57,911 bases of DNA, taken from NCBI GenBank assembly GCA_027001645.1, contig JALTMP010000185.1, forward strand, positions 1 through 57,911, read 5' to 3'. Each line of letters opens with the position of its first letter. The first letter of the stretch is position 1. This document shows, piece after piece, positions 7,026-55,679 of the stretch. The DNA is from Candidatus Heimdallarchaeota archaeon. GTDB lineage: Archaea; Asgardarchaeota; Heimdallarchaeia; Heimdallarchaeales; JAJRWK01. Below the pieces are notes generated by a model that saw only the letters and a program-made list of their open reading frames with translations, had not been told where the DNA came from and did no database searches. The translations under genes were made by a program, and so were the position numbers.

Positions 7026-7090
7026 TCTATTCACCACATTCAAAGTGCGGGATAAGTCAATTGCATGTTCGTAACATCTATCTTAAGAGT

Positions 7091-8391: not shown

Positions 8392-8396
8392 CTACC

Positions 8397-8900: not shown

Positions 8901-9071
8901 ATTTTCCACTCCTTGACAAATGTGGTGATTTAGAGTTCCTACCAATAGGTTAAGCATCTTGCTTATAAGTTGTTGCAATGTCTGAGAGTTGATTTTCACT
9001 AATCTTTCAAAAGTCTACGTCAAAAAGTAGCAATTTGATACGAACGCAAAAAGACTCTCGGACGTGCTACC

Positions 9072-12702: not shown

Positions 12703-13428
12703 ATGGCCATACTTGTCCTTGTCCTACCTCTTCTGCTTAGTGCTTTTACTTTTTTTATCCCCGCCGCTATCGGTATCAATAATCCTGAAACGGGAACCTC
12801 TTTTGGGGGAAATCTTGAATCGATTACGGAAGGAGCTTATGTAAATTACACCCTTCGAAATGGATACTGGTTTTTTTGGGAAGTAGTAACAATTTTCCCT
12901 AATGAAACTGCATTAATTGCAAGAATCAATCAAACCTTATCTGGTCGTTCTATTTCTTTCCTAACCGTTGCTGTGGAAAACCCCGCAGTTTCTCACTTCT
13001 ACCTCTGGACTCAAGTCAATCTTCTCCAACCTGGAGATTCAGGAATTGTGATCGCAAACGGAAGTGCAGATGTTGTATCCGACGCAATTGTAACAATTAG
13101 GGAAAATGAAACAACAATCCCTCTTCAAGCTTACCGTCTAGTCGTTACCAGTGGGCCACTAAGAGGATACGTCTTGTACTATGAATCAGTAACCGGCATT
13201 CTGCTTGAGTCTTATCTTTCCTCCGAGGAAAATCTTCCTTTTATGCAGATACAGGATACTAATCTTCACCTCAGTCTTCCTACGCCCGAGGATAGTGGTC
13301 TGAGCCCCTCTGAGCTAATCGAGTTAGCAGTGAGCTTTTCATTGTTTATTGGTAGCGTTCTCATGATATATGTCTTAACCAACTATAAGATCCCCAAGAA
13401 GAGGAGAGATACGGGGAACTCAGATTGA
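12703..13428 (+). CDS. Secreted, C-terminally membrane-anchored protein of unknown function
   Basis: The N-terminal hydrophobic signal or anchor is MAILVLVLPLLLSAFTFFIPAAIG. Several N-x-S/T sequons are present. The C-terminal TM (LAVSFSLFIGSVLMIYVL) is followed by KIPKKRRD. I recognise no family. Confidence 0.5.
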   Translation: MAILVLVLPLLLSAFTFFIPAAIGINNPETGTSFGGNLESITEGAYVNYTLRNGYWFFWEVVTIFPNETALIARINQTLSGRSISFLTVAVENPAVSHFYLWTQVNLLQPGDSGIVIANGSADVVSDAIVTIRENETTIPLQAYRLVVTSGPLRGYVLYYESVTGILLESYLSSEENLPFMQIQDTNLHLSLPTPEDSGLSPSELIELAVSFSLFIGSVLMIYVLTNYKIPKKRRDTGNSD

Positions 13429-20200: not shown

Positions 20201-22202
20201 CGAAGTCATAGGCTCCTGTATTCATAATATCGACTTTGGGATAAAGATCGGCATTTGGTCCTTTTGAGCTAAACCAACCAACTTGGTCATGGTGCCCTTG
20301 GGTGGTGCTATATGGATCTATCTTAGAAAAGGCCAGATAGTTGTGGGCTGAGGATGCTCCTACTCCGAGAGCAACATCTGCCATGGGTGGACCACCAGTT
20401 CCATATCCGGGACCTGAATTACCGTATGAAATGACGAATAGGAGTCCTGGATAACTAGGATCAATTCCACCCGGTAGAGTGAGTACTTGAAGCGCCAAGG
20501 AAATAATATCACTTCCCGGCCAGAATCCACCGAGAGTTGGTGAAGTGTATCCCCAAGAGTTTGAAGAAATGTTTGCCATGTGTTCTCCGGTCCATCCATA
20601 TTCAATGAATTCACCGTTGTATTGGGGTGTGAACCCAGCAGCCCATAGCCAGGATTCCAAGAATCCGCTGGCAAAGAATCCGCCTAATCCTAAAATTCTG
20701 GCATTTGGCGCTATGCCAACTAAGGTCATGTTTACGTTAGGATCAGAAGCATTTCCGTATTCACCTGCCCAATCATATACTGGGAATGTGAGTTCATTTC
20801 CAGCGATTTGGCCGGCAACACTCGTACCGTGTCCCTGTTCGTCAAATAGCTGGGCAAAGGCACCTCCTTCCGGATCAATAAGGCGGAGCACTGGGTCACT
20901 GTCTGACGTGCTTGGACCCCATCCCGTAATGTTGTAGGAATCTAGTGTGTTGCCGAGAGAGCCTAATGATATGTCGTTGTAACCGTCTCCATCAATGTCT
21001 GCAGCGAGAGTAAAGTTTAGTGCTGCTTCTTGAGCCGTCATTCCTGGAAATACACCATGCCTTTTTGCATAGGGATTCGTATTTGGATCGAAATCAAATG
21101 GAGCATTCTTATATTCTGAGAATGTTGCAGTTCCGAGAATACCATATTCTGTCATCAATAGGGCGGTCTTATAGTCAATGTACAAGGTGTCATAGCCTGG
21201 TTGAGAATCCATGTAATCTGCAAGAATGAAGGGGGCTGCAACCCAGTAGGGTCCTTGAGGTATGAATGAGACACCAAACTTAACAGTTGACCCAACTGGA
21301 AGCTCTTCTGGTGCATGGAATTTGTCAGGGAGTGTGAGTGTTGCAATCTGAAATTCCAATAATTGCTTAAGGGTGAGAATATATGGTCCAAAGGGCGCTG
21401 CCATTACTTGTATTTCATCTTCTGCGCCCTTGGTTACAATCGTGCGAGCACTTGTAATTGTATAATCTTTACTCGTGATTGACATGAAGTATCCCGCGGT
21501 GGCATAACTCATTGGTAGGTTATTGTCGTCGAGTGCCATTTTTCCAACAAGTCCCGGGGTTCCAAAGTCAATTCCTGTATCTGTAGGCGCAACAATGACG
21601 CCAGTCCCGTCTGCGAGCTGAATGGCATCATCTGCCCCAATGAGTCTTCGGGTAATTGGTCCCAACCCATCCGAGCTGCCTACTCCATCTAAAGAGGGTG
21701 TGTCTTCTGGAGTACTCAGTTGATCGAGGGTCGCTTTGTAATTTATGTCCGCGCTAACTAGCGCTACGTCTCCGCGTTCAAACAGAGTTGCAGCAGTTCG
21801 TCGATCTTGGATTGTTGCATGTACCCACCAGAACCCGTCTAGCATTTGGAATGTGGTAACTACGTTCACTAATCCCCCTAGACTGGGATCTGGATTGATT
21901 GTTAGAAACATAATGTGTACGCCAAGATTGTCTTGTCTTACCTCTGCAGGAAGCTCTCCTGTGTTTACCCACTTTGACAACAGGTAATCCTTCTGTTGTT
22001 CTAGGGTAGGAGCTGCTCCTGGATTTAGAGGTGCCGTAAATGTTGATGGGACCGCCGTGGTTGCCGGCATCGATTCAACAGACTCGATAGTTGCTGTCGT
22101 TGACGTTGAATTTGCCGGAGACACCCACGGTAAGGCCCCAAGAAAAGCGGCAATGATTAAAATTGTAAATAATGCTCTTCTATTTGTGATCCTACTTTTC
22201 AT
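17223..22202 (-). CDS. Giant secreted subtilisin-family (S8, pyrolysin-like) serine protease with Ig-like repeats and a C-terminal membrane anchor
   Basis: The signal peptide is MKSRITNRRALFTILIIAAFLGALPW. The catalytic triad motifs are VAPTDTGIDFG (Asp), GHGTSVAGQIAG (His) and GGTSQAAPMTSGSLALI (Ser), with long insertions between them. The C-terminus is GGGFLPFPIYALFGAFALITATIYRRRK. The ATG at 22202 has a GAGGTG Shine-Dalgarno; the ORF track uses the GTG at 22211. Confidence 0.9.
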   Translation of the reverse strand: MKSRITNRRALFTILIIAAFLGALPWVSPANSTSTTATIESVESMPATTAVPSTFTAPLNPGAAPTLEQQKDYLLSKWVNTGELPAEVRQDNLGVHIMFLTINPDPSLGGLVNVVTTFQMLDGFWWVHATIQDRRTAATLFERGDVALVSADINYKATLDQLSTPEDTPSLDGVGSSDGLGPITRRLIGADDAIQLADGTGVIVAPTDTGIDFGTPGLVGKMALDDNNLPMSYATAGYFMSITSKDYTITSARTIVTKGAEDEIQVMAAPFGPYILTLKQLLEFQIATLTLPDKFHAPEELPVGSTVKFGVSFIPQGPYWVAAPFILADYMDSQPGYDTLYIDYKTALLMTEYGILGTATFSEYKNAPFDFDPNTNPYAKRHGVFPGMTAQEAALNFTLAADIDGDGYNDISLGSLGNTLDSYNITGWGPSTSDSDPVLRLIDPEGGAFAQLFDEQGHGTSVAGQIAGNELTFPVYDWAGEYGNASDPNVNMTLVGIAPNARILGLGGFFASGFLESWLWAAGFTPQYNGEFIEYGWTGEHMANISSNSWGYTSPTLGGFWPGSDIISLALQVLTLPGGIDPSYPGLLFVISYGNSGPGYGTGGPPMADVALGVGASSAHNYLAFSKIDPYSTTQGHHDQVGWFSSKGPNADLYPKVDIMNTGAYDFGYGVTDVGNGFYSFRVFGGTSQAAPMTSGSLALIYSAWAKISTTTGSLRPDMAKTILMSTATDLGYDPFSQGVGRVNVSKAMQFIFGRYNTTGTFDPAMRVYTTASHEVEMNRIKTALEYYFTNTYEEGGSGTDFWGFNLTDSLSTYTSANMDDTSLFFGTVTTPVTKAVMIDPNDGSTLQTADAYTYGLDYQHDYTLTNTSARWTFYSLSDLLGATPFTHFKSSDIVQFIFNTDGTAVPEANYWTYLMIWRDADNDNVPEYGPEWEVVSRTLSDVYAQTLWVSLSNLTSTEMDNLYIGVRDFLWDDPATLDENETISPSYQGIEISVSVRMYSKTTGVSGVTVSVTSGTQADVTVDPTGLAPGLHSGFVTLTTSSGISALVPFSFSIPLMVDNGETAGWTTATKDAVDEPYDWDMYPAMAGDMRFFEIMFTGVTPTAAPNTLAISLNWTGKDSHVGFWLADPAGLVFEASDSRFGDLIKNYPYQGNANPEGWGYRYLVNLTAAAEFFGYNISASDFRIHVALYLDKIDTSLTGPEKITFKAAWFDGILGQDITLPEVEIQGTVPSGAPTTHNGKALTTGNFTISVAQDVAGLPAAFLSEFSAKNSEIGVEIGSFFEVSLSNYPIPADDLTPTSGRTVFEYTKPVDLREGMFVRASLDWADAKQDWDLFLLKQPGIVAPDNDVFGFDAATLAKPETATAIIEADGTYTISIDFYDGPIEDSYIDLSFIASKQVLSTSTDPNGEVLTLADEGEYLVDVTLFGFNIPVYSAKIEVDKNPPVMLSTITEVEEDADNPGMGVIGVIFDETSFNATVQLDGTTITTLTNAEGKVSLYVELSKINDYEAHTIKVTGNDYLGRAMTETTWQITLKDSTTPTIVSPPSDQEVKPGETVTLTWTVKDDSGGTYSITIDDNEVATGSFAGGNTEQTISYDFKESSSGEYVVKLTLTDKGGNVATDTVTIIVKSKGGGFLPFPIYALFGAFALITATIYRRRK

Positions 22203-22214
22203 GGGACTCACCTC

Positions 22215-28700: not shown

Positions 28701-29714
28701 TTAGGTGTCTCGAAGTAGCTTGACAATTGCTTGGGGAATATGCTGATAGGTTTGAACTTGGATGTATCGGCCTCTTCCGAGTCTTGTAAGATCTTTGCAG
28801 ACTCTTTCTCCCCACTCGTGTTTTGATGGAAGTCCTAAAACATGGAGGGTTGGTATTTGTTGAACGTGTTTTCTGGGGTCTCCTCCTCTGTTGAACGCTC
28901 CGTCCGTTACTAAGATGGCAAATTTTTGCCTCGTTTTCATCTTCTTCAATTCAGTTCCAGCAACTTGTAGTGCTTCTGCAATGTTTGTGTACCCTGCAGA
29001 TTCGCTGTCGAGGATCCGATCAATCACTTCCTCTGCTGTGAGTTTTTCTTCGACGTGTTTTATGACGTAGGGTTTGGTGTTGAATAGAATGACACTGTAA
29101 TCATCGTGAGCGAGTTGATATGCCAAGACTGCCACTGCTAAGGCGGCAGTAACAAATCGCTTTCCGTATAGGGACCCAGACGTATCAAATATTAGGACTC
29201 CGTTTTTGGATTTTTCTCTTCGCTCGATCGCGATGATGTCTTCGTAGGTTAGATATCCCTTTTCAAGGTAGTTCTCTATTGTGATGTCAAGATCAAACTC
29301 TTCGCTCTCTGGCGTGGCAGGAACTCTTACCATTGTTGATCCTCGGAGACCTTTTCCGACAATCCCTCTTGAAACTTTGAGGATTGTCTGACGAGCTAGT
29401 CTTTTGAATATCGGTCTTGCCTGTTCGCTAAGGTTTCCCCTTAGCATGAAGAAGAGCTCTGGAGCAGACGTGTCTCCCGTGCTCGCCCTTCTTCCTATCA
29501 TTTTTAGCCCCTCTCGGGACGAAAGTGCTTCGGCAACAGCGAATTGATTGGATATGGCTAAGCCTTTTACTGCTGGCATGTTATCCATTTCTAAAGCTAG
29601 CTCAGTCATTCGTTTGATTTGGTGATAGTTCATTCCTTTTGAGAGGTCTGTGTAGATCTTTGAGTTTCGCCGTCCTCTGATTATTTCAGCCTTTAATTGG
29701 GTCTCCTTATCCAT
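28701..29714 (-). CDS. VWA-domain protein (MoxR partner, CoxE/ViaA-like)
   Basis: The MIDAS motif is GVLIFDTSGSLYGKR. Downstream are TNIAEAL and AILVTDGAFN. It lies 59 nt downstream of the MoxR gene on the same strand. Confidence 0.8.
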   Translation of the reverse strand: MDKETQLKAEIIRGRRNSKIYTDLSKGMNYHQIKRMTELALEMDNMPAVKGLAISNQFAVAEALSSREGLKMIGRRASTGDTSAPELFFMLRGNLSEQARPIFKRLARQTILKVSRGIVGKGLRGSTMVRVPATPESEEFDLDITIENYLEKGYLTYEDIIAIERREKSKNGVLIFDTSGSLYGKRFVTAALAVAVLAYQLAHDDYSVILFNTKPYVIKHVEEKLTAEEVIDRILDSESAGYTNIAEALQVAGTELKKMKTRQKFAILVTDGAFNRGGDPRKHVQQIPTLHVLGLPSKHEWGERVCKDLTRLGRGRYIQVQTYQHIPQAIVKLLRDT

Positions 29715-29773
29715 TCGACCCCTGGAACTTATGCGTGGTCTAGGTTCATCGAGTGATCCAAAGTCACCCTCCC

Positions 29774-30667
29774 CTAGGGAAAACCCTCATCCTCCATGGC
29801 TTGGATAATGATTTCCTTGATTACCTCTTCTACACGCTTTTCCACACCATCTTCCAATTCTACTTTAGTGGCTAGTGCCATGGTTCCTGCAGAAATCCAT
29901 GCTTCCGGATTATTCTTATCCATGAATTGCATAATGGACGCATAGTCTAGCGCTCCTCTAATTGAGGATCCTCTTCGTAATTCGGGCCAGTCTCTGGTCA
30001 TTCTTGTTACTCTAACAACCAAAGAAATAACATCTTCGTCCGTTACTCCCGTTTTTACTGCCACTATACTTCTTTCTTCTTCCTCAGTCTGGTATTCTAG
30101 CCGTACCCATGCAAAACGGTCCCTAAGGGCTTCACTCAACGGTGTTGTGGCAACGAATTCTTGGGGATTCATTGCTGCAATGATGTAGAAGCCCTCCTTT
30201 GCTTTCACAACTCCAAGTTTGGGAATGGACACCATTCCCTCGTCCATTGCAACAAGAAGAACGTTTTGGGTGCCTTCGGGCATACGGTTGATCTCATTGA
30301 GGAAGAGAATTGAGCCATTCATCATGGCCACAGTCAGTGGCCCTGGGACAAAGGACTCCCAAGTATAGCCCTTCTCGATTACCATTGGGGGGTCAAAATG
30401 CCCAACAAGTCGAGCACTTGAATAACGTTCGTCTCCATCAACTCTTTCCAAATTCTGGCTGAAATATTGAGCGATTGCATGAGCTAGCGTGGTTTTACCA
30501 ACACCCACATCTCCTTCGAGTAGGATGTGTTTACCTGCCAGTTTTGCTGCGATGCACATTCGCAATTCTGCCTCGCGTCCAACGATATTATATCGTTCTT
30601 GGATCTCTTTGATAATTGTCTCAATTGGGGGATAATTTTCTGCCTTCATGTTTACCATTACACCCAC
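29774..30667 (-). CDS. MoxR-family AAA+ ATPase
   Basis: Walker A is LLEGDVGVGKTTLAHA and Walker B is ILFLNEINRMPEGTQNVLLVAMDEG. IIAAMNPQE and LSEALRDRF are also present. The ORF starts at a GTG; in-frame ATGs follow at 30658 and 30649. Confidence 0.88.
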   Translation of the reverse strand: MGVMVNMKAENYPPIETIIKEIQERYNIVGREAELRMCIAAKLAGKHILLEGDVGVGKTTLAHAIAQYFSQNLERVDGDERYSSARLVGHFDPPMVIEKGYTWESFVPGPLTVAMMNGSILFLNEINRMPEGTQNVLLVAMDEGMVSIPKLGVVKAKEGFYIIAAMNPQEFVATTPLSEALRDRFAWVRLEYQTEEEERSIVAVKTGVTDEDVISLVVRVTRMTRDWPELRRGSSIRGALDYASIMQFMDKNNPEAWISAGTMALATKVELEDGVEKRVEEVIKEIIIQAMEDEGFP

Positions 30668-45495: not shown

Positions 45496-46818
45496 ATGTT
45501 GGATTGTGAGAGTATGGTCACATCAAATCCAAATGGGAAATCGGTTCTCATTATTGGGGGCGGAATTGCCGGAATGCAAGCCGCGTTGGATTTAGCAGAT
45601 CAAAAAATAAAAGTCTACTTGGTTGAAACACTTCCAAGCATTGGGGGACGTATGGCGCAGCTTGATAAAACCTTTCCAACTCTTGACTGCGCTTCTTGCA
45701 TTTTAACGCCGAGGATGGTGGACGTTGCAAGACATGAGAAAATTGAGCTTCTGACATATTCTGAAGTTCAAGAAATAGCCCGAGAGCACGGACATTTTGT
45801 GGTCAAGATTCTCAAGAAACCAAGATACGTCAATACTGAAACTTGTAATGGATGTGGAATATGCGTTACTAAATGTCCTAAGAGAGCTCCAAACGAATTT
45901 AACCTCGGTATGGATGAGCGTAAGGCCATTTATTTTTTGTTCCCACAAGCTGTTCCTTTGGTTCCTGTAATCGATCCGACTGCTTGTATCTATTTTCTAA
46001 GAGGCAAGTGTCGCGCATGTGAAAAACACTGTCCAACTCACTCCATCTCTTTTGATCAGGAACCCGAACTCACCGAAGTTGAAGTTGGGGCCATTATTTA
46101 CGCTACTGGCTTCAGCTTATACGATCCAAGCAAGAACAATGACTATGAATACAACACCTTTCCGGATGTGATTACCTCCTTGGAGTTAGAACGGCTCGTA
46201 TCCTCAACAGGACCAACGGAGGGCTGTGTGATTCGACCATCTAATGGTGAGAAACCGAGGAAAGTTGCTTTTATTCTTTGTGTTGGCTCTAGAAGCCAGC
46301 GAGCGAATTACTGGTGCTCCCGGTTTTGTTGTATGGCTTCAATTAAGCAAGCTGTTCTATTGAAGGAGCACGACCCCCGTATAGAATGTACAATTTTCTA
46401 CATGGACATTCGAGCTTTTGGTAAAGGCTTTCAAGAATTCTACGAACGAGCAAAGAGCGAGTTCAATGTACGTTTTGTCAAAGGAAGAGTTGGTTCTATA
46501 AAGGAAAACTCTCAGGAGGGCAATCTTCTACTTCGATATGAAAACATAGAGACAGGGTACGTGCAAGAGGAGAGCTTTGACTTAGTAGTGCTTGCTGTTG
46601 GAGCTGAGAATCCTCTACGTAAACCTCCCTCCTTCTTGGAACTGGATGATGATGGTTTTATCGCAGTTATGGATCGATATCTAGCTCCCGTGTACACGAG
46701 TGTGGAAGGAATTTTTGTTGCAGGGACCGCAGAAGGCCCTAAGGATATCCCTGATTGCGTTGTTCAAGCAAGCGCCGCTGCAATGGAGGCATCTATTTTG
46801 ATAACGGGAGGCGAATAA
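45496..46818 (+). CDS. Short HdrA-like flavoprotein (QmoA-like in architecture)
   Basis: LIIGGGIAGMQAALDLA is the FAD motif. The inserted ferredoxin shows CNGCGICVTKCP and CRACEKHCP. The HdrA-type cluster is CVGSR...WCSRFCCM. The protein lacks the HdrA N-terminal CxCGxNI domain and the C-terminal ferredoxin. Confidence 0.8.
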   Translation: MLDCESMVTSNPNGKSVLIIGGGIAGMQAALDLADQKIKVYLVETLPSIGGRMAQLDKTFPTLDCASCILTPRMVDVARHEKIELLTYSEVQEIAREHGHFVVKILKKPRYVNTETCNGCGICVTKCPKRAPNEFNLGMDERKAIYFLFPQAVPLVPVIDPTACIYFLRGKCRACEKHCPTHSISFDQEPELTEVEVGAIIYATGFSLYDPSKNNDYEYNTFPDVITSLELERLVSSTGPTEGCVIRPSNGEKPRKVAFILCVGSRSQRANYWCSRFCCMASIKQAVLLKEHDPRIECTIFYMDIRAFGKGFQEFYERAKSEFNVRFVKGRVGSIKENSQEGNLLLRYENIETGYVQEESFDLVVLAVGAENPLRKPPSFLELDDDGFIAVMDRYLAPVYTSVEGIFVAGTAEGPKDIPDCVVQASAAAMEASILITGGE

Positions 46819-46819
46819 A

Positions 46820-48772
46820 ATGAGTGAGGAAATACGGATCGGTGTATATGTCTGCCATTGTGGTATCAATATTGCTGGAGTCATTGATGTAAAGCAAGTA
46901 GTAGAACATGCAAAGACATTGCCGAACGTTGTGGTGGCGAAAGATATTCTGTTCACTTGTTCTAGCGTTGGACAAAATACTATCGTTGATGATATCAAGA
47001 GAGAGAAGCTTAACAGAATCGTTGTTGCAGCATGTTCTCCAAGAATGCACGAAAGTACTTTTCGAAATACTGTTGAGCAAGCAGGCTTAAACCCATTTCT
47101 TTTTGAAATGGCAAATATTCGTGAGCATAGTTCGTGGGTTCATCCCGATGATCCCGAAGGAGCGACCGAAAAAGCGAAAACTCTAGTTCGTATGGCTGTT
47201 GCGAAGGCAAAACTACTCGAGCCTATCGAAAAATCAAGAGCAGATGTGACGAAGAAAGTATTAGTGATTGGAGGAGGAGTTGCCGGTCTTCAAGCTAGCT
47301 TAGATGCTGCCAATCGAGGTCTATCAGTTACCTTGGTGGAAAAATTACCCGTTCTAGGCGGGAAAGCAGCGCTAATTGGGGATTTAGTGTATTCTGAAAA
47401 GAAAGGATGGCAGATCGTGAAAGAATTAGTAACCCAAGTGGTTACTCATGAGAAAATTCATGTTCTAACCAATACGACAGTTGAAAATGTTTCTGGAGCA
47501 TTTGGGGATTATCACGTAACTCTCACTATTACGCCGCGATACGTTAAAGAAACATGTTTGACCCCTGAAAAAGGAGAAGAAGCTTGTCCTGTTGAAGTTC
47601 CCAACGAATATGATTTTGGTTTAACTCGCCGAAAAGCCTTTTATAAGCCCTTTGAACAAGCCTATCCCCCTTTATATTTAATCGACATGTCTTCTTGCAC
47701 GAAATGTGGTCTCTGCCTCGAAGCGTGTGGGAATAACTCCATTGATCTAGAAGAAAAGCCAAAGACCTTGTCTGAAAAATTTGGAACAATAATCGTTGCA
47801 ACCGGATATGAGCCCTATACACCCTCTCTGGGGGAATACGGATACGGCAAAGATGGCAGAGTGATTACTCTCTCTCAACTAGAACGAATACTAAGTGAAA
47901 ATGGCCCCTCTTTTGAGGATCTCAATCTATTTGATTCTGTCGAAAACATAGTCTTCATAAGTTGTGTGGGTTCGATGGAAAACCCAAGAGATGAGGGTGC
48001 TAGGACGTACTGCTCCAGAATGTGTTGCTCTTCATCGATTAAGAATATGCTAAAACTCCGAGAACTCTTTCCTTCATCAAACATCTACTTCCTTTATCGT
48101 GACATACGGACCTATGCTAGAAAAGAAGAGCATCTTTACGAGCAAGCTAGTAAGAATGGAATTATTTTTCTAAAATACGATCTCTCGACACCACCCGATG
48201 TGAAAATCAATGGGAAACCAAGTGTGGAGGTCTTGGATAAACTTCTAGGCAAACGGATTCAGATTCCTGCCGATCTCGTTGTTCTCGCAAATGGCATGGT
48301 TCCTCCGGCTGATATCCTCAAACTACGGAGTCTTTTGAAGTTTCCATGCTCCTCTGAAGGCTGGGTTGCTGAAGCTCATCCTAAGCTTCGACCCGTCGAA
48401 CTTCCCTCCCCTGGAATATACATTGCTGGATCAATCCAGGCTCCTAAGGACATTATAGAATCATTGATCTCAGCAAGTGCTGCCACCGCAAAGGCCGTTA
48501 TTCCAATTATTCATGGGAGAGTGGAACTCGAACCTCTTGTTTCCTATGTCCATGAAGATGTTTGTGGAGCCTGTGGAATTTGTGTCTCAACGTGTCCCTA
48601 TGACGCAGTTCAACGCGTCGCTTTGGAAGATGGTAGAAGGGTAGCAAGAGTTGATCCTCGATTGTGCATGGGATGTGGTCAATGTGTAAGTGCTTGTCCT
48701 TCTGCTGCAATGCAACAAAAGAGTTTCACGGACAAACAGATTCACGAAATGATTGAGCAATTGGTGGTGTAA
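46820..48772 (+). CDS. hdrA: Heterodisulfide reductase subunit A (full-length HdrA architecture)
   Basis: The N-terminal domain is IGVYVCHCGINIAG. FAD binding is VLVIGGGVAGLQASLDAA. The inserted ferredoxin is CTKCGLCLEAC, followed by CSRMCC. The C-terminal ferredoxin shows CGACGICVSTCP and CMGCGQCVSACP. Confidence 0.88.
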   Translation: MSEEIRIGVYVCHCGINIAGVIDVKQVVEHAKTLPNVVVAKDILFTCSSVGQNTIVDDIKREKLNRIVVAACSPRMHESTFRNTVEQAGLNPFLFEMANIREHSSWVHPDDPEGATEKAKTLVRMAVAKAKLLEPIEKSRADVTKKVLVIGGGVAGLQASLDAANRGLSVTLVEKLPVLGGKAALIGDLVYSEKKGWQIVKELVTQVVTHEKIHVLTNTTVENVSGAFGDYHVTLTITPRYVKETCLTPEKGEEACPVEVPNEYDFGLTRRKAFYKPFEQAYPPLYLIDMSSCTKCGLCLEACGNNSIDLEEKPKTLSEKFGTIIVATGYEPYTPSLGEYGYGKDGRVITLSQLERILSENGPSFEDLNLFDSVENIVFISCVGSMENPRDEGARTYCSRMCCSSSIKNMLKLRELFPSSNIYFLYRDIRTYARKEEHLYEQASKNGIIFLKYDLSTPPDVKINGKPSVEVLDKLLGKRIQIPADLVVLANGMVPPADILKLRSLLKFPCSSEGWVAEAHPKLRPVELPSPGIYIAGSIQAPKDIIESLISASAATAKAVIPIIHGRVELEPLVSYVHEDVCGACGICVSTCPYDAVQRVALEDGRRVARVDPRLCMGCGQCVSACPSAAMQQKSFTDKQIHEMIEQLVV

Positions 48773-48774
48773 GA

Positions 48775-49209
48775 ATGTCCGCGAAAGAAGTAGAACAAAC
48801 TAGTTATGAACCAAAAATCTTGATGTTTGCTTGTAATTGGTGTGCATATGCCGGCTTAGATTTGGCGGGGACAAGTCGGCTCACCTACCCCGCTAACGTA
48901 ACTGTCATTAGAACGATGTGTTCAGGTCGAATCGATCCCTCTTTTGTAATTAAGGCACTAACTGAAGGTATTGATGGTGTTCTCATCGGCATGTGTAATT
49001 ACGGCGATTGTCATTACATAGATGGTAACTACAAGGCAATGAAGAGGTTTCTTTTGCTACAGAAGATGCTTCACGATCTTGGTATTGAAATGGAAAGGGT
49101 GCGAATCGAAGGGATCTCCGCTTCAGAAGGGCTCAAAGCGAAGCGAGTAATTAGTGAAATGGTTCATACATTACAAAAACTTGGCCCGTTGAAAATTGTG
49201 GAGGAATAA
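48775..49209 (+). CDS. mvhD: Methyl-viologen-reducing hydrogenase delta subunit
   Basis: MFACNWCAYAGLDLAG, RTMCSGRIDP and CNYGDCHY match. Confidence 0.9.
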   Translation: MSAKEVEQTSYEPKILMFACNWCAYAGLDLAGTSRLTYPANVTVIRTMCSGRIDPSFVIKALTEGIDGVLIGMCNYGDCHYIDGNYKAMKRFLLLQKMLHDLGIEMERVRIEGISASEGLKAKRVISEMVHTLQKLGPLKIVEE

Positions 49210-49213
49210 GAAA

Positions 49214-50191
49214 ATGGGAGAAAAACCTAAGGTTGCTTTTTATTGGTGTAGCACTTGTGGAGGTTGTGAGGAATCAGTAGTTGACCTTGCAGAGAACATC
49301 TTAGATGTGGTTGCCGCAGTAGATATTGTTTTCTGGCCCGTGGCTTTAGACTTTAAATTAGAAGACGTTGAATCTCTCAAAGATGGAGAAATTACTGTAT
49401 GCTTTATCAACGGGGCAATAAGAACTTCCGAAGACGTCCATATAGCAAAACTGTTGCGACAGAAATCACAGTTGATTGTCGCATACGGATCTTGTTCTCA
49501 TTTGGGAGGAATTCCTGGTCTGGCTAACTTCTGGAATCGGGAAGCCATTTTTCAACAGGTGTACAAGGATGCACCCACAATTCACGATGATGTGCCCATT
49601 TTTCCCCAAGAAAAATTCGAAATAGACGGGATTACTCTAACTCTGCCAACATTTTACAACACTGTGCGAAAGCTTGGCGACGTCATTGATGTAGACTACT
49701 ATATCCCTGGATGTGCCCCTAATCCTAATCTGTTGTTAGAAGCAATTAACTTACTTCTCTCTGGAAAGATTCCACCAAAAGGTTCCGTCTTGTCACCAAA
49801 TCGAAATATGTGTGAAGAATGCCCCTTGGAACGAAAAGAAGAGAAATTCAAGCTAACCTCATTTCATCGACCTTTTGAGATTATCCCTGAACCATCTAGA
49901 TGTCTGCTTGAACAAGGAATTATTTGTCTTGGACCAGTAACGAGAGTTGGTTGTGGTGCTCTCTGCATGCAAGTCAATATGCCTTGTAGGGGATGTTATG
50001 GGACAACAGACGGGGTCCAAGATGTGGGAGCGAAATTTGCCTCTGCGCTTGCCTCTATAATTGACGTCGAGAATGACGAAGAATTTGTGAAACTCATAGA
50101 GTCCATTCCGAACTATACGGGACTTGTCTACATGTTTAGTTTGCCGTCTAGTTATCTGAAGAGAAAGAAAATGGAGGTCAATAAACCATGA
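49214..50191 (+). CDS. mvhG: [NiFe] hydrogenase small subunit, Mvh/group-3c type
   Basis: KVAFYWCSTCGGCEESVVD is the proximal cluster motif. Distal Cys clusters are CEECP, GPVTRVGCGALC and CRGCYG. The ATG at 49214 follows a GGAGGA and the mvhD stop. Confidence 0.88.
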   Translation: MGEKPKVAFYWCSTCGGCEESVVDLAENILDVVAAVDIVFWPVALDFKLEDVESLKDGEITVCFINGAIRTSEDVHIAKLLRQKSQLIVAYGSCSHLGGIPGLANFWNREAIFQQVYKDAPTIHDDVPIFPQEKFEIDGITLTLPTFYNTVRKLGDVIDVDYYIPGCAPNPNLLLEAINLLLSGKIPPKGSVLSPNRNMCEECPLERKEEKFKLTSFHRPFEIIPEPSRCLLEQGIICLGPVTRVGCGALCMQVNMPCRGCYGTTDGVQDVGAKFASALASIIDVENDEEFVKLIESIPNYTGLVYMFSLPSSYLKRKKMEVNKP

Positions 50192-51672
50192 ATAAGAAAA
50201 AAATCATTATCGACCCTATCACTCGATTAGAGGGGCACGGGAAGATTACAATATTATTAGATGAAAATGGAGATGTCAATAGGGCATATTTCCAGGTTCC
50301 AGAACTTCGTGGTTTCGAAAAATTTTGTGAAGGGCTCCATGCTGAGGAAATGCCTCGGATTACTCAAAGAATCTGTGGAGTGTGTCCAACTGCTCATCAC
50401 ATGGCTTCAACTAAGGCACTAGATGACCTTTTCAAGGTCATTCCTCCCCCTGCTGCTACAAAAGTTAGAGATTTTGTATATAACGCGTTCATGGTGGAGG
50501 ATCATACTTTGCATTTCTTTTTCCTCGGGGGGCCCGATTTTATTGTTGGTCCTCAAGCACCCAAAGCAGAAAGGAATATTCTAGGGGTTATTCAAAAAGC
50601 GGGAATTGATGCTGGAAAGCGTGTAATACTTATGAGAAAAGCAATTCGTAATCTTTTAACTAAGATTACTGGAAAAGTGATTCATCCCGTATTCGGACTT
50701 CCGGGCGGCATTTCAAAGGCCGTTGATAAAGATACTCAGGAAAAAGCGATTAAGATTTCAAAGCAGGCCATCGAATTTAGCCAATGGGTAATGGAACTGT
50801 TCAACAAGATTGTTCTCGGAAACGATGAATATGTACAGCTGATAAAAAGTGAACCTTTTTACTATGAAACTTACTATATGGGCCTCGTTAATGAAAAGAA
50901 CCAAGTTGACTTCTACGACGGAACACTTCGCGTTGTCGATCCTCATGGAAAAGAATTTGCCAAATTCCATCCCTCCAAATACTTAGACTATATCGCTGAG
51001 CATGTTGAACCATGGACCTATGTTCGTCAGACCTATTTGAAGCCAATTGGCTGGAAAGGGTTTGTTGATGGTCCTGATAGCGGGTTGTATCGCGTCAATC
51101 CCTTAGCACGCCTCAATGTGTCTGACAGCATGTCGACTCCACTTGCTCAAAAAGAATTTGAACGCCTGTTCGACTTATTGGGTGAAAAGCCTGTACATTA
51201 CGTACTTGCTTGGCACTGGGCAAGACTGGTTGAATTGATTTTTGCAGCCGAGCGAATGTTAGAACTAGCTTCTGATCCCGAATTTATAGATTCTAATGTG
51301 CGCGAGATTCCTTCCAAGACTCCTCGTGAAGGAATAGGGTGTGTAGAAGCCCCAAGGGGAGTGCTTATCCACCACTACCAAACAGACGAAAACGCTGTAA
51401 TCCAGAAAGCTAATCTTATTGTTGCGACCCAACAGAATGCTGCCCCGATTAATCTTGGAATTGCAAAGGCTGCTAAAGGACTTATTCGGGACGGTCACGT
51501 GACCGATGGGCTGCTCAATATGGTTGAAATGGCATTTAGGGCATATGACCCTTGCTTCGCATGTGCTACACATTCTTTGCCCGGGCAATTACCACTAATG
51601 ATCGAATTGTATGACCATGAGAAAACCCTAATCGAAAAAGTCCCAATGTGGGAAAAAATAGGAGGGAAATGA
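50188..51672 (+). CDS. mvhA: [NiFe] hydrogenase large subunit, Mvh/group-3c type
   Basis: IIDPITRLEGHGKI is present. The NiFe L1 motif is RICGVCPTAHH and the L2 motif is DPCFACATH, followed by a cleavable tail of about 32 aa. There is an ATGA start/stop overlap with mvhG. Confidence 0.92.
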   Translation: MNKKKIIIDPITRLEGHGKITILLDENGDVNRAYFQVPELRGFEKFCEGLHAEEMPRITQRICGVCPTAHHMASTKALDDLFKVIPPPAATKVRDFVYNAFMVEDHTLHFFFLGGPDFIVGPQAPKAERNILGVIQKAGIDAGKRVILMRKAIRNLLTKITGKVIHPVFGLPGGISKAVDKDTQEKAIKISKQAIEFSQWVMELFNKIVLGNDEYVQLIKSEPFYYETYYMGLVNEKNQVDFYDGTLRVVDPHGKEFAKFHPSKYLDYIAEHVEPWTYVRQTYLKPIGWKGFVDGPDSGLYRVNPLARLNVSDSMSTPLAQKEFERLFDLLGEKPVHYVLAWHWARLVELIFAAERMLELASDPEFIDSNVREIPSKTPREGIGCVEAPRGVLIHHYQTDENAVIQKANLIVATQQNAAPINLGIAKAAKGLIRDGHVTDGLLNMVEMAFRAYDPCFACATHSLPGQLPLMIELYDHEKTLIEKVPMWEKIGGK

Positions 51673-51673
51673 C

Positions 51674-52876
51674 ATGATGCAAACAAGCGTTTTAGAACCA
51701 AAAGTTGCCCCTCCCAGCAAAGAGGCATTAAAGGTTAACCCTCAGTTAATCAATGAATTGAAGCAGTTTGGAGTTGTGTCCCCTGAAATCTGCTACAATT
51801 GTGGGCTGTGTGTTGCAGTCTGCGGACAATCCGGTGCAGAGCACAACTTCCCCCGAAGAACGATTCGGTGTGTTCAATTGGGTTTGGAAGAGGAGCTTCT
51901 TAGTAGTGTTGAACCTTGGCTTTGCTATTACTGTGGTGATTGTACTGACTCATGCCCAAGGGAGGCAGAACCAGCTGAAATGATGATGGGTATACGCAGA
52001 TGGCTCATTGCCAAGTACGATTACACTGGTCAAGCAAAGCATTACTATACGTCTACTAAGCGTCTTATTCTTGACACCGTTTTTTTTGCACTCCTTCCCG
52101 TGCTGGGTTTGTTCATCCTACACTACTTTGGTTGGGCAAGAATCGTTTCTAACGAAGTGAGAATTAATGAGTTCGCACCAGTCATGATAATCTGGATTGC
52201 TGCGATTATCACCGGAACAATCCATGCGTTGATACTACTTGCTGGGGGCTATCACATGTTCAAGCTTGTTATGAACGATGACGCCTTAAAAGATGAAATA
52301 AGAATTTCCGACTATCTCCTCGAGATAAAGGAATTTGTGGCTAATTTTATTACTCAGAAGAAATGGCTGGCATGTGGGAAGAAAGAAGCAACAAGATGGC
52401 TCAAACATCTGATCCTCGTTTTAGGGTATGCCACTATGTTTATACTCATCATCGGCTTTCTATGGTGGTTCCAAACAGATAACATTTATCCCATCACCCA
52501 TCCTCAAAGATGGATCGGCTATCTTGCAACGATTATACTATTATTCGGTACAATCGACATTATTGTTGGCCGTTTGCAAAAAAAAGATCAAATTCACAGG
52601 TTCTCACATCATAGCGATTGGGCCTTTCCCATCATCTTATTCCTTGTTGTTGTTACTGGCATCCTTGTTCATATTTTGAGATACATGGCTCTTCCTTTAC
52701 CAACCTATATCATGTATACTATCCATTTGATGGCCAGTAACGTCATGCTCAGCACTGAGGTTGGAGTTGGGAAATGGTCTCACCTTCTCTACCGTCCACT
52801 AGCTCACTATTTAGATGCTGTAAAGGAAAGAGCTCAGAAGCGAATACTGGTCCCCGGCGATCCAACTCAGATATGA
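51674..52876 (+). CDS. HdrC-like 2x[4Fe-4S] domain fused to a polytopic His-rich membrane domain (QmoC/HdrE/NarI-like)
   Basis: CYNCGLCVAVCG ... CYYCGDCTDSCPREAEP has HdrC-type spacing. At least 5 hydrophobic helices follow, with conserved-looking His residues (ILHYFGW, GTIHALILLAGGYHMF, LKHLILVLGY, GILVHILRY, KWSHLLYRPLAHY). It starts 1 nt after the mvhA stop. Confidence 0.7.
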   Translation: MMQTSVLEPKVAPPSKEALKVNPQLINELKQFGVVSPEICYNCGLCVAVCGQSGAEHNFPRRTIRCVQLGLEEELLSSVEPWLCYYCGDCTDSCPREAEPAEMMMGIRRWLIAKYDYTGQAKHYYTSTKRLILDTVFFALLPVLGLFILHYFGWARIVSNEVRINEFAPVMIIWIAAIITGTIHALILLAGGYHMFKLVMNDDALKDEIRISDYLLEIKEFVANFITQKKWLACGKKEATRWLKHLILVLGYATMFILIIGFLWWFQTDNIYPITHPQRWIGYLATIILLFGTIDIIVGRLQKKDQIHRFSHHSDWAFPIILFLVVVTGILVHILRYMALPLPTYIMYTIHLMASNVMLSTEVGVGKWSHLLYRPLAHYLDAVKERAQKRILVPGDPTQI

Positions 52877-52981
52877 TCTAATGTGGCCTATTCGATACGA
52901 TTCTTGGCTAAATTTCACTACTCTCCAAATAAACGATATATGGTTTCACATAGAATTATTTAGTAACGAAATGTGATCCTC

Positions 52982-53206
52982 ATGTGTGTGGTCCGCCCTC
53001 TAAGAATCATTTCTGTGAACGGAAGCAGTGCTGTTGTTGAACTTCCCTCCGGAGAAACTGCTATTGCAAATACTTCTCTTGTCGAGGCAAAAGCCGGGGA
53101 TTACGTGATTATTAACAATGGTTTTGTCATTCAAGTTTTGCCTCCTGAAGAAGCTCAAGCAACTCTGAGATTATGGGAAAAGCTTGATCAAATGAGCGAA
53201 ATCTAG
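52982..53206 (+). CDS. hypC: Hydrogenase assembly chaperone HypC/HupF
   Basis: The N-terminus MCVVRPLRII carries the essential Cys2. The size is about 74 aa. The ORF-track start at 52973 is a GTG. Confidence 0.85.
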   Translation: MCVVRPLRIISVNGSSAVVELPSGETAIANTSLVEAKAGDYVIINNGFVIQVLPPEEAQATLRLWEKLDQMSEI

Positions 53207-53221
53207 TATGAAGGAATAGGA

Positions 53222-53602
53222 ATGCACGAATATGGCATTATTTCTAATCTCATCCGCATAACTCTAGACCGTCTAGCCAAAGAAAGTGTTTCCAAAGTAT
53301 TACTCGTCGAAATTGAATTTGGTGAATTTCTTTTCATTAATCCTGAGAATGCAAGAATGGCATTTGATTCCTTGGTTTCAGGGACAATTTTGGAAGGCTC
53401 AGAATTGAGGCTACAGTTTGTACCGGGAAAAATACATTGTACTTCTTGTGGCTATGAAGGTGGTGTTCCTCTTCCGAAGGACAAACATCTGCACTACAGT
53501 AACCACTTGCTTATTTGCCCGAAGTGTAACGCTATCCCTCAAGTAGTACAAGGATTAGAGTGTGCTGTTACCCAGATTGAAATCGAATCTATTGTTGCCT
53601 AA
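53222..53602 (+). CDS. hypA: Hydrogenase nickel-insertion protein HypA
   Basis: MHEYGIISNLI is the MHE Ni site. The Zn site is CTSCGYEG...CPKCN. Confidence 0.88.
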   Translation: MHEYGIISNLIRITLDRLAKESVSKVLLVEIEFGEFLFINPENARMAFDSLVSGTILEGSELRLQFVPGKIHCTSCGYEGGVPLPKDKHLHYSNHLLICPKCNAIPQVVQGLECAVTQIEIESIVA

Positions 53603-54087
53603 TTCTTTTGACCACCCGGATTTTTCTCCTCTAATCCTACAAGTTTAGCAATTATCCCCGCGGCCTTTGGAACTGCATTGCTAACCTCCTCCGAAAGTTT
53701 TGTTGTTAATTCAGTAGAGATTTGTTTGAGTTGGCATGTTACAAATGTTATTCTCGTCCCTGTTTTGAGAATCGCTTCTATGATGCTCCTATCCGGGAAA
53801 AAGTGTGAGGATGCTTGCTCGGGTATTTGTGGTAAATTCTGAGCTTGAAGTATCTCGATCTCTCCTGGTTTTTTTCCCAGATCCATCGTATCAATTATGA
53901 TGATCCAATCTGGTCTCTCATCATCAATCGTCAAAGGACGTAGCCATTCTCCGCAAGCGAGGCCCGCATCAATAATTTGAGTATTTCTTGATGCCTCATA
54001 ATGCTGTTCAAGGTAGTTTATCACAGCTGGCCCAAATCCGTCGTCCCCCTTGAGAATATTGCCACAACCAATTACTAAGATGTCCAT
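53599..54087 (-). CDS. Hydrogenase maturation endopeptidase (HycI/FrhD/HoxM family)
   Basis: MDILVIGCGNILKGDDGFGPAV is present, followed by IIIDTMD and a later His. The size is 162 aa. Confidence 0.85.
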   Translation of the reverse strand: MDILVIGCGNILKGDDGFGPAVINYLEQHYEASRNTQIIDAGLACGEWLRPLTIDDERPDWIIIIDTMDLGKKPGEIEILQAQNLPQIPEQASSHFFPDRSIIEAILKTGTRITFVTCQLKQISTELTTKLSEEVSNAVPKAAGIIAKLVGLEEKNPGGQKN

Positions 54088-54116
54088 TCTTTTCCAACCT
54101 AGTTTACTTATTTTTC

Positions 54117-55679
54117 CTATTTTTTCCTTCGTCTTTCAAAGATTTTTTTGCCCTGCTCAGTCAACTCATTCATTGAGTATGAAACCGTTTTTTCCCTAGA
54201 ACTGTCATAAATAAAGACGGTCTTGACCAAATCACTCATCTCTATAGTTCTTAGAAATAACGCTGCATGTGATATCTCTTCTCCTTTCATTCTCTCCAAT
54301 AACACGGGGAAATTTCGCATACTAGGGGTAACTATGTTGGCCATAGATATCCTACCATTAGGGTCAGTAATGAGGTGGTATGTAAGCAATCCTCCCGGGG
54401 CTTCAACTATTCCGAGAGATTGTCTTGATCGCTCAAGAGATCCCGGCTCCTCAGACTCATAATTTGATGGAATCTCAAAATTACCCGGAAATTGGCTTGG
54501 GATGATTTCCAGCAGAGCCTGCAAAAGAAGAACAGAGTTTTCTGTTTCTTTCGCTCTTACCTTTACCAAACCAGCAACATCGTTCTCATTACTCACTGCT
54601 ATTCTTATTGGGAGCTTGTCGTAACCCTCGTGTTCAAGTATCTGCCTCATGTCCATTTTCTGCCCCAAAGCTCTAGCGATTGGACCGACAGGGTCAAAAG
54701 AATCAATTTTCTCTCGCTCTAGCTTCCCTATTTCTTCCACCAACTGTATGACTTGTTGATAGGAAGGGTCTTCAAACAGCTCGTGGATTTTCGTCTCTAA
54801 CTCTTCCATGTACTGTGTTAGCTTGATTCTCATTTTTTTGGGCAAATCAAACATCGACGGTGAAAAAAGAGATCTACTCTTAGAAAGTCCTAGCCTATTC
54901 AAATCGCTGACTTTTAGAGACAACTCATTTCTAACATTAAATGCTTTTTTGAGAAACTCAGGAATACCAACAAAATCTGCGATCATCCCTATCCATAATA
55001 GGTGTCTTGCTATTCTCTCCAGTTCTAAGAAGAATACGCGAAATAAGGTCATGCCTTCGGATGGTTCTCTAAGAGGCGCGATTTTTTCAAGTGCTTTTGT
55101 ATAAGCTAACTGGTGAGAAAACGGACAAAGGGTGATCATAGAGCCCAATCTGTGGGGAATCTCTGCCCACCCATATCTCCTAATACGAGCTTCGATCTTG
55201 TAATAAACTGAACCCAAGTAAACCCTAGCATCCTCAACAATTCCCTCATTTGCAATGAGCCAAAAAGCGAAGAAATTACTGCCATCCTTCTCCTCAATAT
55301 CGTTTGTTACAACATATGAATGAGCAACTTTCTTAAAGCGCAAGTCACTGGCGAACTCTGCTTTTCTTTCAAGGATTTCACTGGATGGATACACGGAATT
55401 GATTGATCTGAACATGATCCTATTCACAGGAATTACAACTTTCACAGTTTTTCGATTTTCTAAGCCTGGAACGAGAAAGACGTAATATAGTATAGAGTCA
55501 AATTTTCCATATGTTATATCCAAAATCCTAGACCCTGGTTTTTGTCTAAAGAATTTTGCAAGATAGTAAAGCTTCTCGGGCTCGGTATGGATTACCCATG
55601 TGTCATCATTTTCCCCTTGAATATCCTTGACACCTATTGAATTCATGACTTCAATAAAATTACTCTCTTCCATGAACAT
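54117..55679 (-). CDS. NuoC-NuoD fusion-like protein (group-4 hydrogenase large-subunit homologue) lacking all NiFe cysteine ligands
   Basis: The N-terminal NuoC-like segment is VKVVIPVNR...SINSVYPSSEILERKAEF. NuoD/HycE-like blocks are FLELERIARHLLWIG, VGPIARALG, GIVEAPGGLLTYHL and IVTPSMRNFPVLLERMKGEEIS. The L1 position reads TLCPFSHQLAY, with a single Cys. The C-terminus has no Cys. Confidence 0.65.
   Translation of the reverse strand: MFMEESNFIEVMNSIGVKDIQGENDDTWVIHTEPEKLYYLAKFFRQKPGSRILDITYGKFDSILYYVFLVPGLENRKTVKVVIPVNRIMFRSINSVYPSSEILERKAEFASDLRFKKVAHSYVVTNDIEEKDGSNFFAFWLIANEGIVEDARVYLGSVYYKIEARIRRYGWAEIPHRLGSMITLCPFSHQLAYTKALEKIAPLREPSEGMTLFRVFFLELERIARHLLWIGMIADFVGIPEFLKKAFNVRNELSLKVSDLNRLGLSKSRSLFSPSMFDLPKKMRIKLTQYMEELETKIHELFEDPSYQQVIQLVEEIGKLEREKIDSFDPVGPIARALGQKMDMRQILEHEGYDKLPIRIAVSNENDVAGLVKVRAKETENSVLLLQALLEIIPSQFPGNFEIPSNYESEEPGSLERSRQSLGIVEAPGGLLTYHLITDPNGRISMANIVTPSMRNFPVLLERMKGEEISHAALFLRTIEMSDLVKTVFIYDSSREKTVSYSMNELTEQGKKIFERRRKK

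Follow-up and report, generated by a model that had tools for sequence, protein, structure and literature searches.

A putative non-catalytic relative of group-4 [NiFe]-hydrogenase large subunits encoded among hydrogenase maturation genes in Heimdallarchaeia

The window considered here is a 57,911-nucleotide stretch of DNA (contig JALTMP010000185.1) from a Candidatus Heimdallarchaeota archaeon, a member of the Heimdallarchaeia, the archaeal class that holds the closest known relatives of eukaryotes and is marked by oxygen-related metabolism. It carries a gene, here called X, whose 520-residue product has the architecture of a fused NuoC-NuoD-type large subunit of a group-4 [NiFe] hydrogenase, a single cysteine and a set of hydrogenase maturation genes for neighbours. 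The favoured reading, which is given about an even chance of being right, is that X serves as a non-catalytic accessory of hydrogenase maturation of the HoxV/HupK kind, an independently evolved analogue of those bacterial proteins with a function proposed by analogy.

Architecture and former metal site of X

The open reading frame (ORF) at 54117-55679(-) is intact and comprises 520 codons. Its product and the parts that can be recognized in it, with the evidence for each in brackets, are as follows.

54117..55679 (-): gene X, 520-residue putative non-catalytic paralogue of a fused NuoC-NuoD-type group-4 [NiFe]-hydrogenase large subunit (ORF, Pfam, NCBIfam, fold)
55305..55679 (-): NuoC-like (30-kDa subunit) domain, residues ~1-125 (sub-threshold Pfam, relatives, whole-model alignment)
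54240..55271 (-): NuoD/[NiFe] large-subunit-like body, residues ~137-480 (Pfam, NCBIfam, PDB sequence match, Foldseek)
55101..55145 (-): remnant of the L1 metal-binding motif, GSMITLCPFSHQLAY (alignment to HycE)
54375..54410 (-): counterpart of the hydrogenase EAPRGxxxH motif, IVEAPGGLLTYH (alignment)
54222..54245 (-): remnant of the L2 motif (DPCxxC), IEMSDLVK, without Cys (alignment)
54120..54221 (-): retained C-terminal extension, TVFIYD...ELTEQGKKIFERRRKK (alignment to the large subunit P0045, AlphaFold 2 (AF2) model)

The body of X is matched by the Pfam model Complex1_49kDa (58.9 bits, residues 278-480), and the NuoC part scores 18.7 bits with Complex1_30kDa, under the cut-off of 22.5 that is exceeded by its relatives P0017 and P0015 (31.9 and 34.0 bits). 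The NCBIfam models for NuoD, FpoD and NuoCD all fall far short of their cut-offs on X (at best 97.9 against 360 bits, NF004739; 54 against 840 bits for the NuoC/D fusion model), and NCBIfam labels do not discriminate among its nearest neighbours, all of which are sub-threshold NuoD/FpoD. The top sequence match in the PDB is HycE of the E. coli formate hydrogenlyase (7z0s_E, E=2e-21), followed by complex-I NuoCD/NuoD. An AF2 model built from the ten-sequence family alignment has a predicted local distance difference test score (pLDDT) of 86.8 and a predicted template-modelling (TM) score of 0.90. HycE 7z0s_E is also the best PDB fold match in Foldseek, aligning over the full length (TM 0.77/0.75, 539 columns), with NuoCD of Aquifex and E. 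coli at TM ~0.73, so that the modelled X appears to have the large-subunit fold with the NuoC fusion of HycE. Together the homology and fold searches confirm the NuoC-NuoD/HycE fusion architecture that an earlier sequence-only reading of this DNA had assigned; that reading gave half of the protein to NuoC, but the domain takes up only about residues 1-125, a quarter.

Little is left of the metal site. The L1 motif of X, SMITLCPFSH, aligns with RVCGICGFAH of HycE in such a way that the first Cys is replaced by Ile, whereas the second (C185, codon 55125-55127) and the His (H189) are retained; X does not match the pattern RxCGxCxxxH. C185 is the only Cys in the protein, and both it and H189 are invariant across the family, four of whose ten members retain both L1 Cys. 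The sequence-only reading had correctly seen one Cys at the L1 position and none at the equivalent of DPCxxC, but its description of the protein as Cys-less does not hold in view of the invariant C185. Neither L2 Cys is present in any of the ten members. The counterpart of EAPRGxxxH reads EAPGGLLTY, with Gly in place of the catalytic Arg and Tyr434 in place of the His, and the position of the catalytic Arg is G, S, N, F or A in all ten members. Because it has one Cys in all, no L2 Cys and no EAPRG Arg, X as judged from these residues cannot be a [NiFe] hydrogenase. Nor does it look like an ordinary NuoD: the Tyr of the DRxDY motif is the quinone-site residue of NuoD in complex I, and its position in X is held by Thr183, the corresponding motifs being DRLCY in the NuoD encoded elsewhere in the window and DRLDY in P0007.

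The last 34 residues of X correspond by homology to the pro-peptide found after DPCxxCxxR in genuine fused group-4 large subunits, and X aligns through this tail to one such subunit, P0045. In real enzymes the pro-peptide is removed by an endopeptidase. AF2 models the tail of X as a hairpin (residues 485-502) and a helix (503-519) at pLDDT ~90, and within the trio formed by X and its two close homologues conservation of the tail equals that of the body (47-62%). At the canonical cleavage position the true enzyme has R and members of the X family have K, N, Q, D or T; this variation suggests that the tail of X is kept rather than cleaved.

Family, descent and conserved gene order

A search of 5.8 billion protein clusters returned only two close homologues of X, P0002 (63% identity) and P0003 (37%), both with the same single-Cys pattern. 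The metagenome-assembled genome from which P0003 comes, Dive96_bin2.176, is classified as Asgardarchaeota; Heimdallarchaeia; o__LC-2 (PMC9769843 supplement). When 1.84 billion representatives were searched exhaustively with a profile, the score fell from 918 to 167 bits beyond this close clade, and the family as a whole, rare and confined to one lineage, amounts to ten 50%-identity clusters and one fragment. The seven distant members (P0015, P0017, P0018, P0021, P0022, P0024 and P0030; ~22% identity) are likewise fused and Cys-poor, having at most the L1 Cys pair and never the L2 pair. Source names are at hand for four of the seven, either Kariarchaeaceae or 'Heimdallarchaeota' and including the LC_2 protein OLS24364.1, and all named members of the family belong to the Heimdallarchaeia (LC-2, Kariarchaeaceae, 'Heimdallarchaeota'). 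A word-index search with the ten-member alignment yielded no members beyond those of the first search, and a scan of GTDB species genomes gave one X locus, already known.

The family bears the marks of a maintained gene. Between X and its 63% orthologue the nonsynonymous (dN) and synonymous (dS) divergences are 0.23 and 1.12 (dN/dS ~0.21); 28 columns, those of C185 and H189 among them, are invariant across ten members at ~25% mean identity; and each of the ten lineages has an intact ORF of similar length. Purifying selection rather than decay is what these comparisons indicate, and the suspicion of a decaying pseudogene, which the earlier reading had tied to orthologues with four Cys, falls away with the single-Cys pattern of the two close homologues and with these divergences. 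The reading of X as a decaying pseudogene or mis-called ORF, to which the loss of catalytic residues and the low Pfam and NCBIfam scores might point, is thereby ruled out and left with next to no probability, given intact ORFs in ten lineages, the selection and invariant columns just described, a confident fold from only ten sequences and conserved synteny.

As to descent, the most telling comparison is with P0045, a 579-residue fused large subunit with four Cys (L1 CGICSAAH, L2 DPCIGC) and an intact EAPRG, whose gene lies between those of NuoB and NuoH. Among true enzymes P0045 is the closest: P0017, the X of a Kariarchaeaceae genome, shares 33% identity with it over 487 residues (E 6e-86), a match that spans the NuoC part and the pro-peptide; beyond L2, 'DPCIGCMERVTFVD..SGQEL' in P0045 corresponds to 'GIDPMEKVTFVD..GSEF' in P0017, and the two pro-peptides share the pattern ME[KR]VTFVD...G.E. 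On the strength of this similarity, the pro-peptide included, X is taken to have arisen by duplication and disabling of the fused large subunit of a group-4 hydrogenase of the NuoB-LSU-NuoH type (LSU, large subunit), and a P0045-type subunit is probably the parent of the family. P0045 has its motifs and its NuoB and NuoH flanks, whereas X has lost the motifs and moved to hyp/hycI surroundings. In a neighbour-joining tree of 148 sequences the ten X members are monophyletic and lie beside other Cys-less sequences, and by mean distance they are nearest to true four-Cys group-4 enzymes, but the deep placement in this tree is unreliable owing to long branches, and descent was judged from the direct P0017-P0045 comparison. 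The course of events would have been the loss of both L2 Cys, of the catalytic Arg and, in the lineage of this window, of the first L1 Cys, with apparent retention of the fold, the second L1 Cys, the adjacent His and the C-terminal pro-peptide.

The LC_2 genome encodes a genuine fused group-4 large subunit (569 residues) together with a NuoB-type small subunit (contig L007, positions 1-2139). This cluster lies ~6 kb from the X-hycI-hyp-mvh region of the same genome, and the disabled copy therefore coexists there with an enzyme of the likely parent type. Complex-I-like hydrogenases of groups 4j-4q have been described in Heimdallarchaeia (Appler et al., 10.1101/2024.07.04.601786).

Gene order was compared across nine independent contigs, in which identity to X goes down to about 22%. 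X adjoins hycI, the gene of a maturation endopeptidase, in all nine; in eight of them hycI lies directly downstream on the same strand, 29-92 nt away. The same nine contigs all have hypA together with at least one of hypC and hypB, and a cluster encoding Mvh(3c)-HdrA-QmoC is found within a few kilobases of X in eight. The order is hypC-hypD-X-hycI, all in one direction, in L013 and hypC-X-hycI in L010, and on L006, an 11-kb Kariarchaeaceae contig, X stands amid hycI, hypA, two hypC, hypF and hypE, and hydrogenase structural genes are absent from the contig. X never forms part of an mvh/hdr transcription unit and always goes with hycI or hyp genes. The outer flanking genes differ from contig to contig (hydrolase, MFS (major facilitator superfamily) transporter, UbiA, small GTPase, methyltransferase), and the constant partner of X is therefore the maturation genes: X is a fixed part of a maturation gene set, arranged as hypC/hypD - X - hycI next to hypA/hypC/hypB. 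The conserved pairing of X with the protease thus extends what the sequence-only reading could see, namely a HycI/FrhD-type gene 29 nt past the stop of X on the same strand. That reading also reported no NuoB, NuoH or NuoL partner nearby, and indeed no such gene adjoins X in the window or in the nine related contigs, none of which has a nuo gene cluster around X either, but MvhG, a NuoB-family small subunit, is encoded only 4 kb away in the window.

Two classes of HypC, about 25-38% identical to each other, are present in the Heimdall loci (L006, L010, L013). The canonical class, MCLS..VLxHTGFA, is found near hypD, hypF and X; the divergent class, MC[IV][AV].P, is found beside hypA and includes the HypC of the window. 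In LC_2 (L007) the divergent HypC is fused to HypB. On L009 the gene immediately upstream of the X homologue (108-959) encodes a small GTPase of the Ras/Arf/Roc family, and such genes are typical of Asgard genomes.

Surroundings of X and other features of the window

The genes on the hycI side of X make up a maturation group and, beyond it, a hydrogenase cluster.

53599..54087 (-): HycI/FrhD-type hydrogenase maturation endopeptidase (Pfam HycI 72.5 bits, TIGR00072 113 bits)
53222..53602 (+): HypA nickel metallochaperone with MHE N-terminus (Pfam, NCBIfam)
52973..53206 (+): HypC-family chaperone of the divergent, next-to-HypA paralogue class (Pfam, NCBIfam)
51674..52876 (+): QmoC-like membrane Fe-S/haem subunit, end of the hydrogenase cluster (NCBIfam qmoC 189 bits, cut-off 300)
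50188..51672 (+): MvhA-type (group 3c) [NiFe] large subunit (NCBIfam VhuA 395 bits)
49196-50191 (+): MvhG, NuoB-family small subunit (ORF list, Pfam)
48775-49209 (+): MvhD (ORF list, Pfam)
46820-48772 (+): HdrA/QmoB-like protein (ORF list, Pfam)
45496-46818 (+): HdrA/QmoA-like protein (ORF list, Pfam)

The stop of X and the start of hycI are separated by 29 nt. By eye, the 84-nt upstream spacer is A/T-rich and an AGGT lies ~12 nt ahead of the hycI start, which is a weak indication of co-transcription. When the endopeptidase is aligned with solved HycI/HybD structures, its Asp/Asp/His metal positions are intact. The hypA (+) and hycI (-) genes are convergent and their 3' ends overlap by 4 nt (53599-53602), so that a terminator could not fit between the two genes. 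The ORF call of the window HypC begins with a GTG at 52973, 9 nt upstream of an ATG at 52982; the latter is probably the true start, giving MCVVRP and the canonical MC N-terminus (Cys2).

Both Cys motifs are present in MvhA, which ends in a 32-residue tail beyond DPCFACATH and is probably the client served by the maturation genes. Because of this tail it needs a protease, and hycI is the only endopeptidase gene among the scanned ORFs of the window. The endopeptidase thus probably serves MvhA, a possibility that the sequence-only reading had itself raised, and this leaves the retention of X unexplained. The order HdrA/QmoA-like, HdrA/QmoB-like, MvhD, MvhG, MvhA, QmoC-like recurs in L001, L003, L005, L007, L010 and L012. 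The cluster resembles a group-3c hydrogenase that is connected to a Qmo-type membrane anchor instead of HdrBC, and this suggests H2-linked quinone or membrane electron transfer.

Elsewhere the window has archaeal genes, among them those of GatD/GatE, TFIIE-alpha, aEF-1alpha and the DNA polymerase small subunit. Some 45 kb from X there are ordinary, separate genes of NuoC (8397-8999(-), Pfam 115 bits) and NuoD (7273-8391(-), 283 bits; motifs DRLCY and IDICVGDLDR), flanked by pyruvate phosphate dikinase (4296-7043) and a coiled-coil protein (9072-9707). No NuoB, NuoH or NuoI gene stands beside this pair (7273-8999), and the nuo genes of this genome may be scattered. A 1662-residue subtilase-family (Peptidase_S8) protein with a C-terminal PKD-like domain is encoded at 17223-22211(-), where the G+C content is the highest in the window (0.47 against ~0.42). 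The 728-residue protein at 13420-15606(-) has an N-terminal TrmB-type helix-turn-helix domain and a long apolipoprotein-like helical-repeat region, and a gene pair at 28701-30667(-) encodes a MoxR-type AAA ATPase (29774-30667) and a VWA-domain protein (28701-29714).

Possible roles of X and their implications

X can be set against several known kinds of protein. With the precursor form of HycE, a group-4a large subunit, it shares the NuoC-NuoD fusion, the same kind of C-terminal extension and a HycI-type protease gene nearby; HycE, however, has four Cys and the catalytic Arg, whereas X has no Ni ligands. HycE is encoded in a membrane-complex operon with HycG (NuoB) and HycC/D and has its tail removed after Ni insertion, and X is without such partners. 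With NuoCD/NuoD it has in common the Complex1_49kDa match, the overall fold and the lack of NiFe ligands, but X differs in its hydrogenase-type C...H, in the Thr that replaces the quinone-site Tyr and in having no adjacent nuo genes; motifs, thresholds and context rule out a true NuoD. Large subunits of the Ehr/Mbx(Mbs) type resemble X in being group-4-derived and having lost cysteine ligands. These reportedly remain in multi-subunit membrane complexes, as Marreiros et al. are said to have described in 2013, whereas X is free-standing in maturation operons, with no membrane-subunit gene adjacent in any of the nine contigs, and for want of a membrane operon an Ehr/Mbx-type subunit is likewise ruled out.

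The closest functional parallel is found in bacteria. HoxV (Cupriavidus necator) and HupK (Rhizobium leguminosarum) are inactive large-subunit-like proteins encoded in bacterial hyp clusters (PMC12134894, PMC3534401). HoxV, located in such a cluster, carries Fe(CN)2CO without Ni (PMC12134894), and systems with HupK have two HypC paralogues, the second being HoxL/HupF (PMC3534401). Both proteins have been associated with the making of hydrogenase when O2 is present (PMC12134894, PMC3534401). Helpers of this large-subunit-like kind have so far been described only in Pseudomonadota, and their role is called unresolved (PMC12134894). X agrees with them in being an inactive [NiFe] large-subunit paralogue encoded among hyp and accessory genes, in a system with two HypC paralogues. 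The agreement extends to L1: in C. necator HoxV (sequence from megaplasmid pHG1) the motif reads RLFALCGEAH against RICGVCTGCH in HoxG, with the first Cys lost and the second Cys and the His retained, which is the pattern of X, and the motifs of HoxV and X fall in register in both BLASTP and hhalign. By analogy, these L1 ligands and the embedding of X in hyp operons lend further support to the non-catalytic role in hydrogenase maturation that the sequence-only reading had put forward.

If X does act in this way, it would be a permanently 'immature' mimic of a large subunit that docks the partners of a real precursor, namely HypC(-HypD) and possibly HypA and HycI. Cys185 would transiently receive or store the Fe(CN)2CO made by HypCDEF, and X would pass it, via an enzyme-specific HypC paralogue, to apo-MvhA and perhaps to a group-4 large subunit encoded elsewhere in the genome. 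HypA and HypB would then insert Ni, and the co-transcribed HycI would cleave the tail of the client. HoxV and HupK play this part for O2-tolerant hydrogenases of bacteria. In the scheme for X its partners, its client and its binding of Fe(CN)2CO are inferred. The more specific proposition that Heimdallarchaeia independently invented a Fe(CN)2CO carrier of the HoxV/HupK type by disabling a complex-I-like large subunit is tentative and regarded as rather doubtful. A bolder version is that X stably holds a mononuclear Fe(CN)2CO or another metal on its single Cys and has an activity or a sensing function of its own, in which case His189, Asp483 and Tyr434 may be the residues near the metal.

Several observations weigh against a maturation role of the HoxV/HupK kind. 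Overall similarity between X and HoxV is insignificant (BLASTP E 0.049, hhalign probability 3.9%), and neither Pfam nor NCBIfam returned a dedicated HoxV/HupK model. HoxV matches the NiFeSe_Hases (group 1-like) branch and lacks both a NuoC domain and a long C-terminal pro-peptide, whereas X matches the Complex1_49kDa/group-4 branch and has both. X thus appears to stand outside the HoxV/HupK lineage, and the likeness would be one of convergence. HoxV also keeps the first L2 Cys (DPCVPY) and the Arg of 'ARG', both of which X lacks. The EAPRG-type Arg contacts a cyanide ligand in standard hydrogenases, and because X is without this Arg and the first L2 Cys a binding geometry like that of HoxV would not be guaranteed. 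HoxV is a bacterial protein for which binding of Fe(CN)2CO has been shown; for the archaeal X such binding is argued by analogy. The 58-kb window has no hypB, hypD, hypE or hypF and only one HypC near X, of the divergent class. No RNA runs contained the sequence of X, which was found in four DNA runs from hydrothermal-vent metagenomes. Finally, the conserved synteny could in part be an inherited ancestral pair of large subunit and hycI rather than a functional link.

That last point is the starting point of the foremost alternative, in which X is a partner or pseudo-substrate of HycI, left over from an ancestral pairing of a group-4 large subunit with hycI: the pro-peptide of X, still uncleaved, and its surface, similar to that of a precursor, would bind HycI, stabilizing, inhibiting or targeting it, while HycI processes MvhA. 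Adjacency to hycI, seen in all nine contigs, is the most constant feature of the family, the HycE-type extension is retained, conserved and confidently modelled by AF2, and the variable cleavage position suggests that the tail stays on. What this account leaves unexplained is the invariance of C185 and H189 at the former metal site and the location of X behind hypC and hypD in some genomes, and known endopeptidases (HycI/HybD) need no such partner; it is considered unlikely. Less probable again is a structural role without redox activity in a soluble or membrane-associated module, X being either a part of Mvh-HdrA-QmoC that docks on MvhG or a placeholder in the assembly of a Heimdall complex-I-like hydrogenase. 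A NuoC-NuoD fold usually has a NuoB-type subunit as its partner, the Mvh(3c)-HdrA-QmoC cluster is close by in eight of nine contigs, and in LC_2 the genuine group-4 cluster of NuoB and large subunit is 6 kb away. Yet X never shares the mvh/hdr transcription unit, on L006 it sits among hyp genes on 11 kb free of hydrogenase structural genes, and genuine group-4 operons already encode a large subunit of their own, all of which makes a structural role quite improbable. There is, lastly, only a slight chance that X is a sensor or regulator whose remnant pocket (Cys185, His189, Tyr434, Asp483) senses Ni, the supply of Fe(CN)2CO, H2, CO or O2 and tunes the maturation or expression of hydrogenase. 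Regulatory hydrogenases provide a precedent and family-specific invariant residues line the former active-site motifs, but those hydrogenases keep all four Cys, X is devoid of DNA-binding and signalling domains, and none of its regular neighbours is a regulator gene.

No description of the X family was found in the literature; a search for OLS24364 was empty, and the Asgard hydrogenase surveys consulted are silent on it. A pseudo-large subunit like HoxV/HupK has not previously been described in archaea, and the X family would be set apart from HoxV and HupK by being archaeal, group-4-derived and NuoC-fused and by retaining the pro-peptide. Candidate hydrogenases have been filtered by the presence of two CxxC motifs (Appler et al., 10.1101/2024.07.04.601786), a filter that excludes the X family. 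In databases its members go by the names 'formate hydrogenlyase subunit 5 precursor', 'ech hydrogenase subunit E', 'NuoD-related' and 'hypothetical'; because this automatic annotation is misleading, metabolic reconstructions of Heimdallarchaeia may count X as a hydrogenase or a complex-I subunit, although it appears to be neither.

If X is indeed a maturation accessory of the HoxV/HupK kind, a second, independent helper would reveal which features of such proteins are essential, above all the single L1 Cys and the His, and the family would offer a new handle on the hand-over of Fe(CN)2CO. It is also a candidate for the missing factor in making Asgard hydrogenases in other hosts. Heimdallarchaeia, like the HupK systems, have been linked to O2 (10.1101/2024.07.04.601786; PMC3534401), and a carrier of this kind in Heimdallarchaeia, if real, would mean that [NiFe] hydrogenases are assembled in these archaea during exposure to oxygen or that a protected pool of the cofactor is needed for other reasons.

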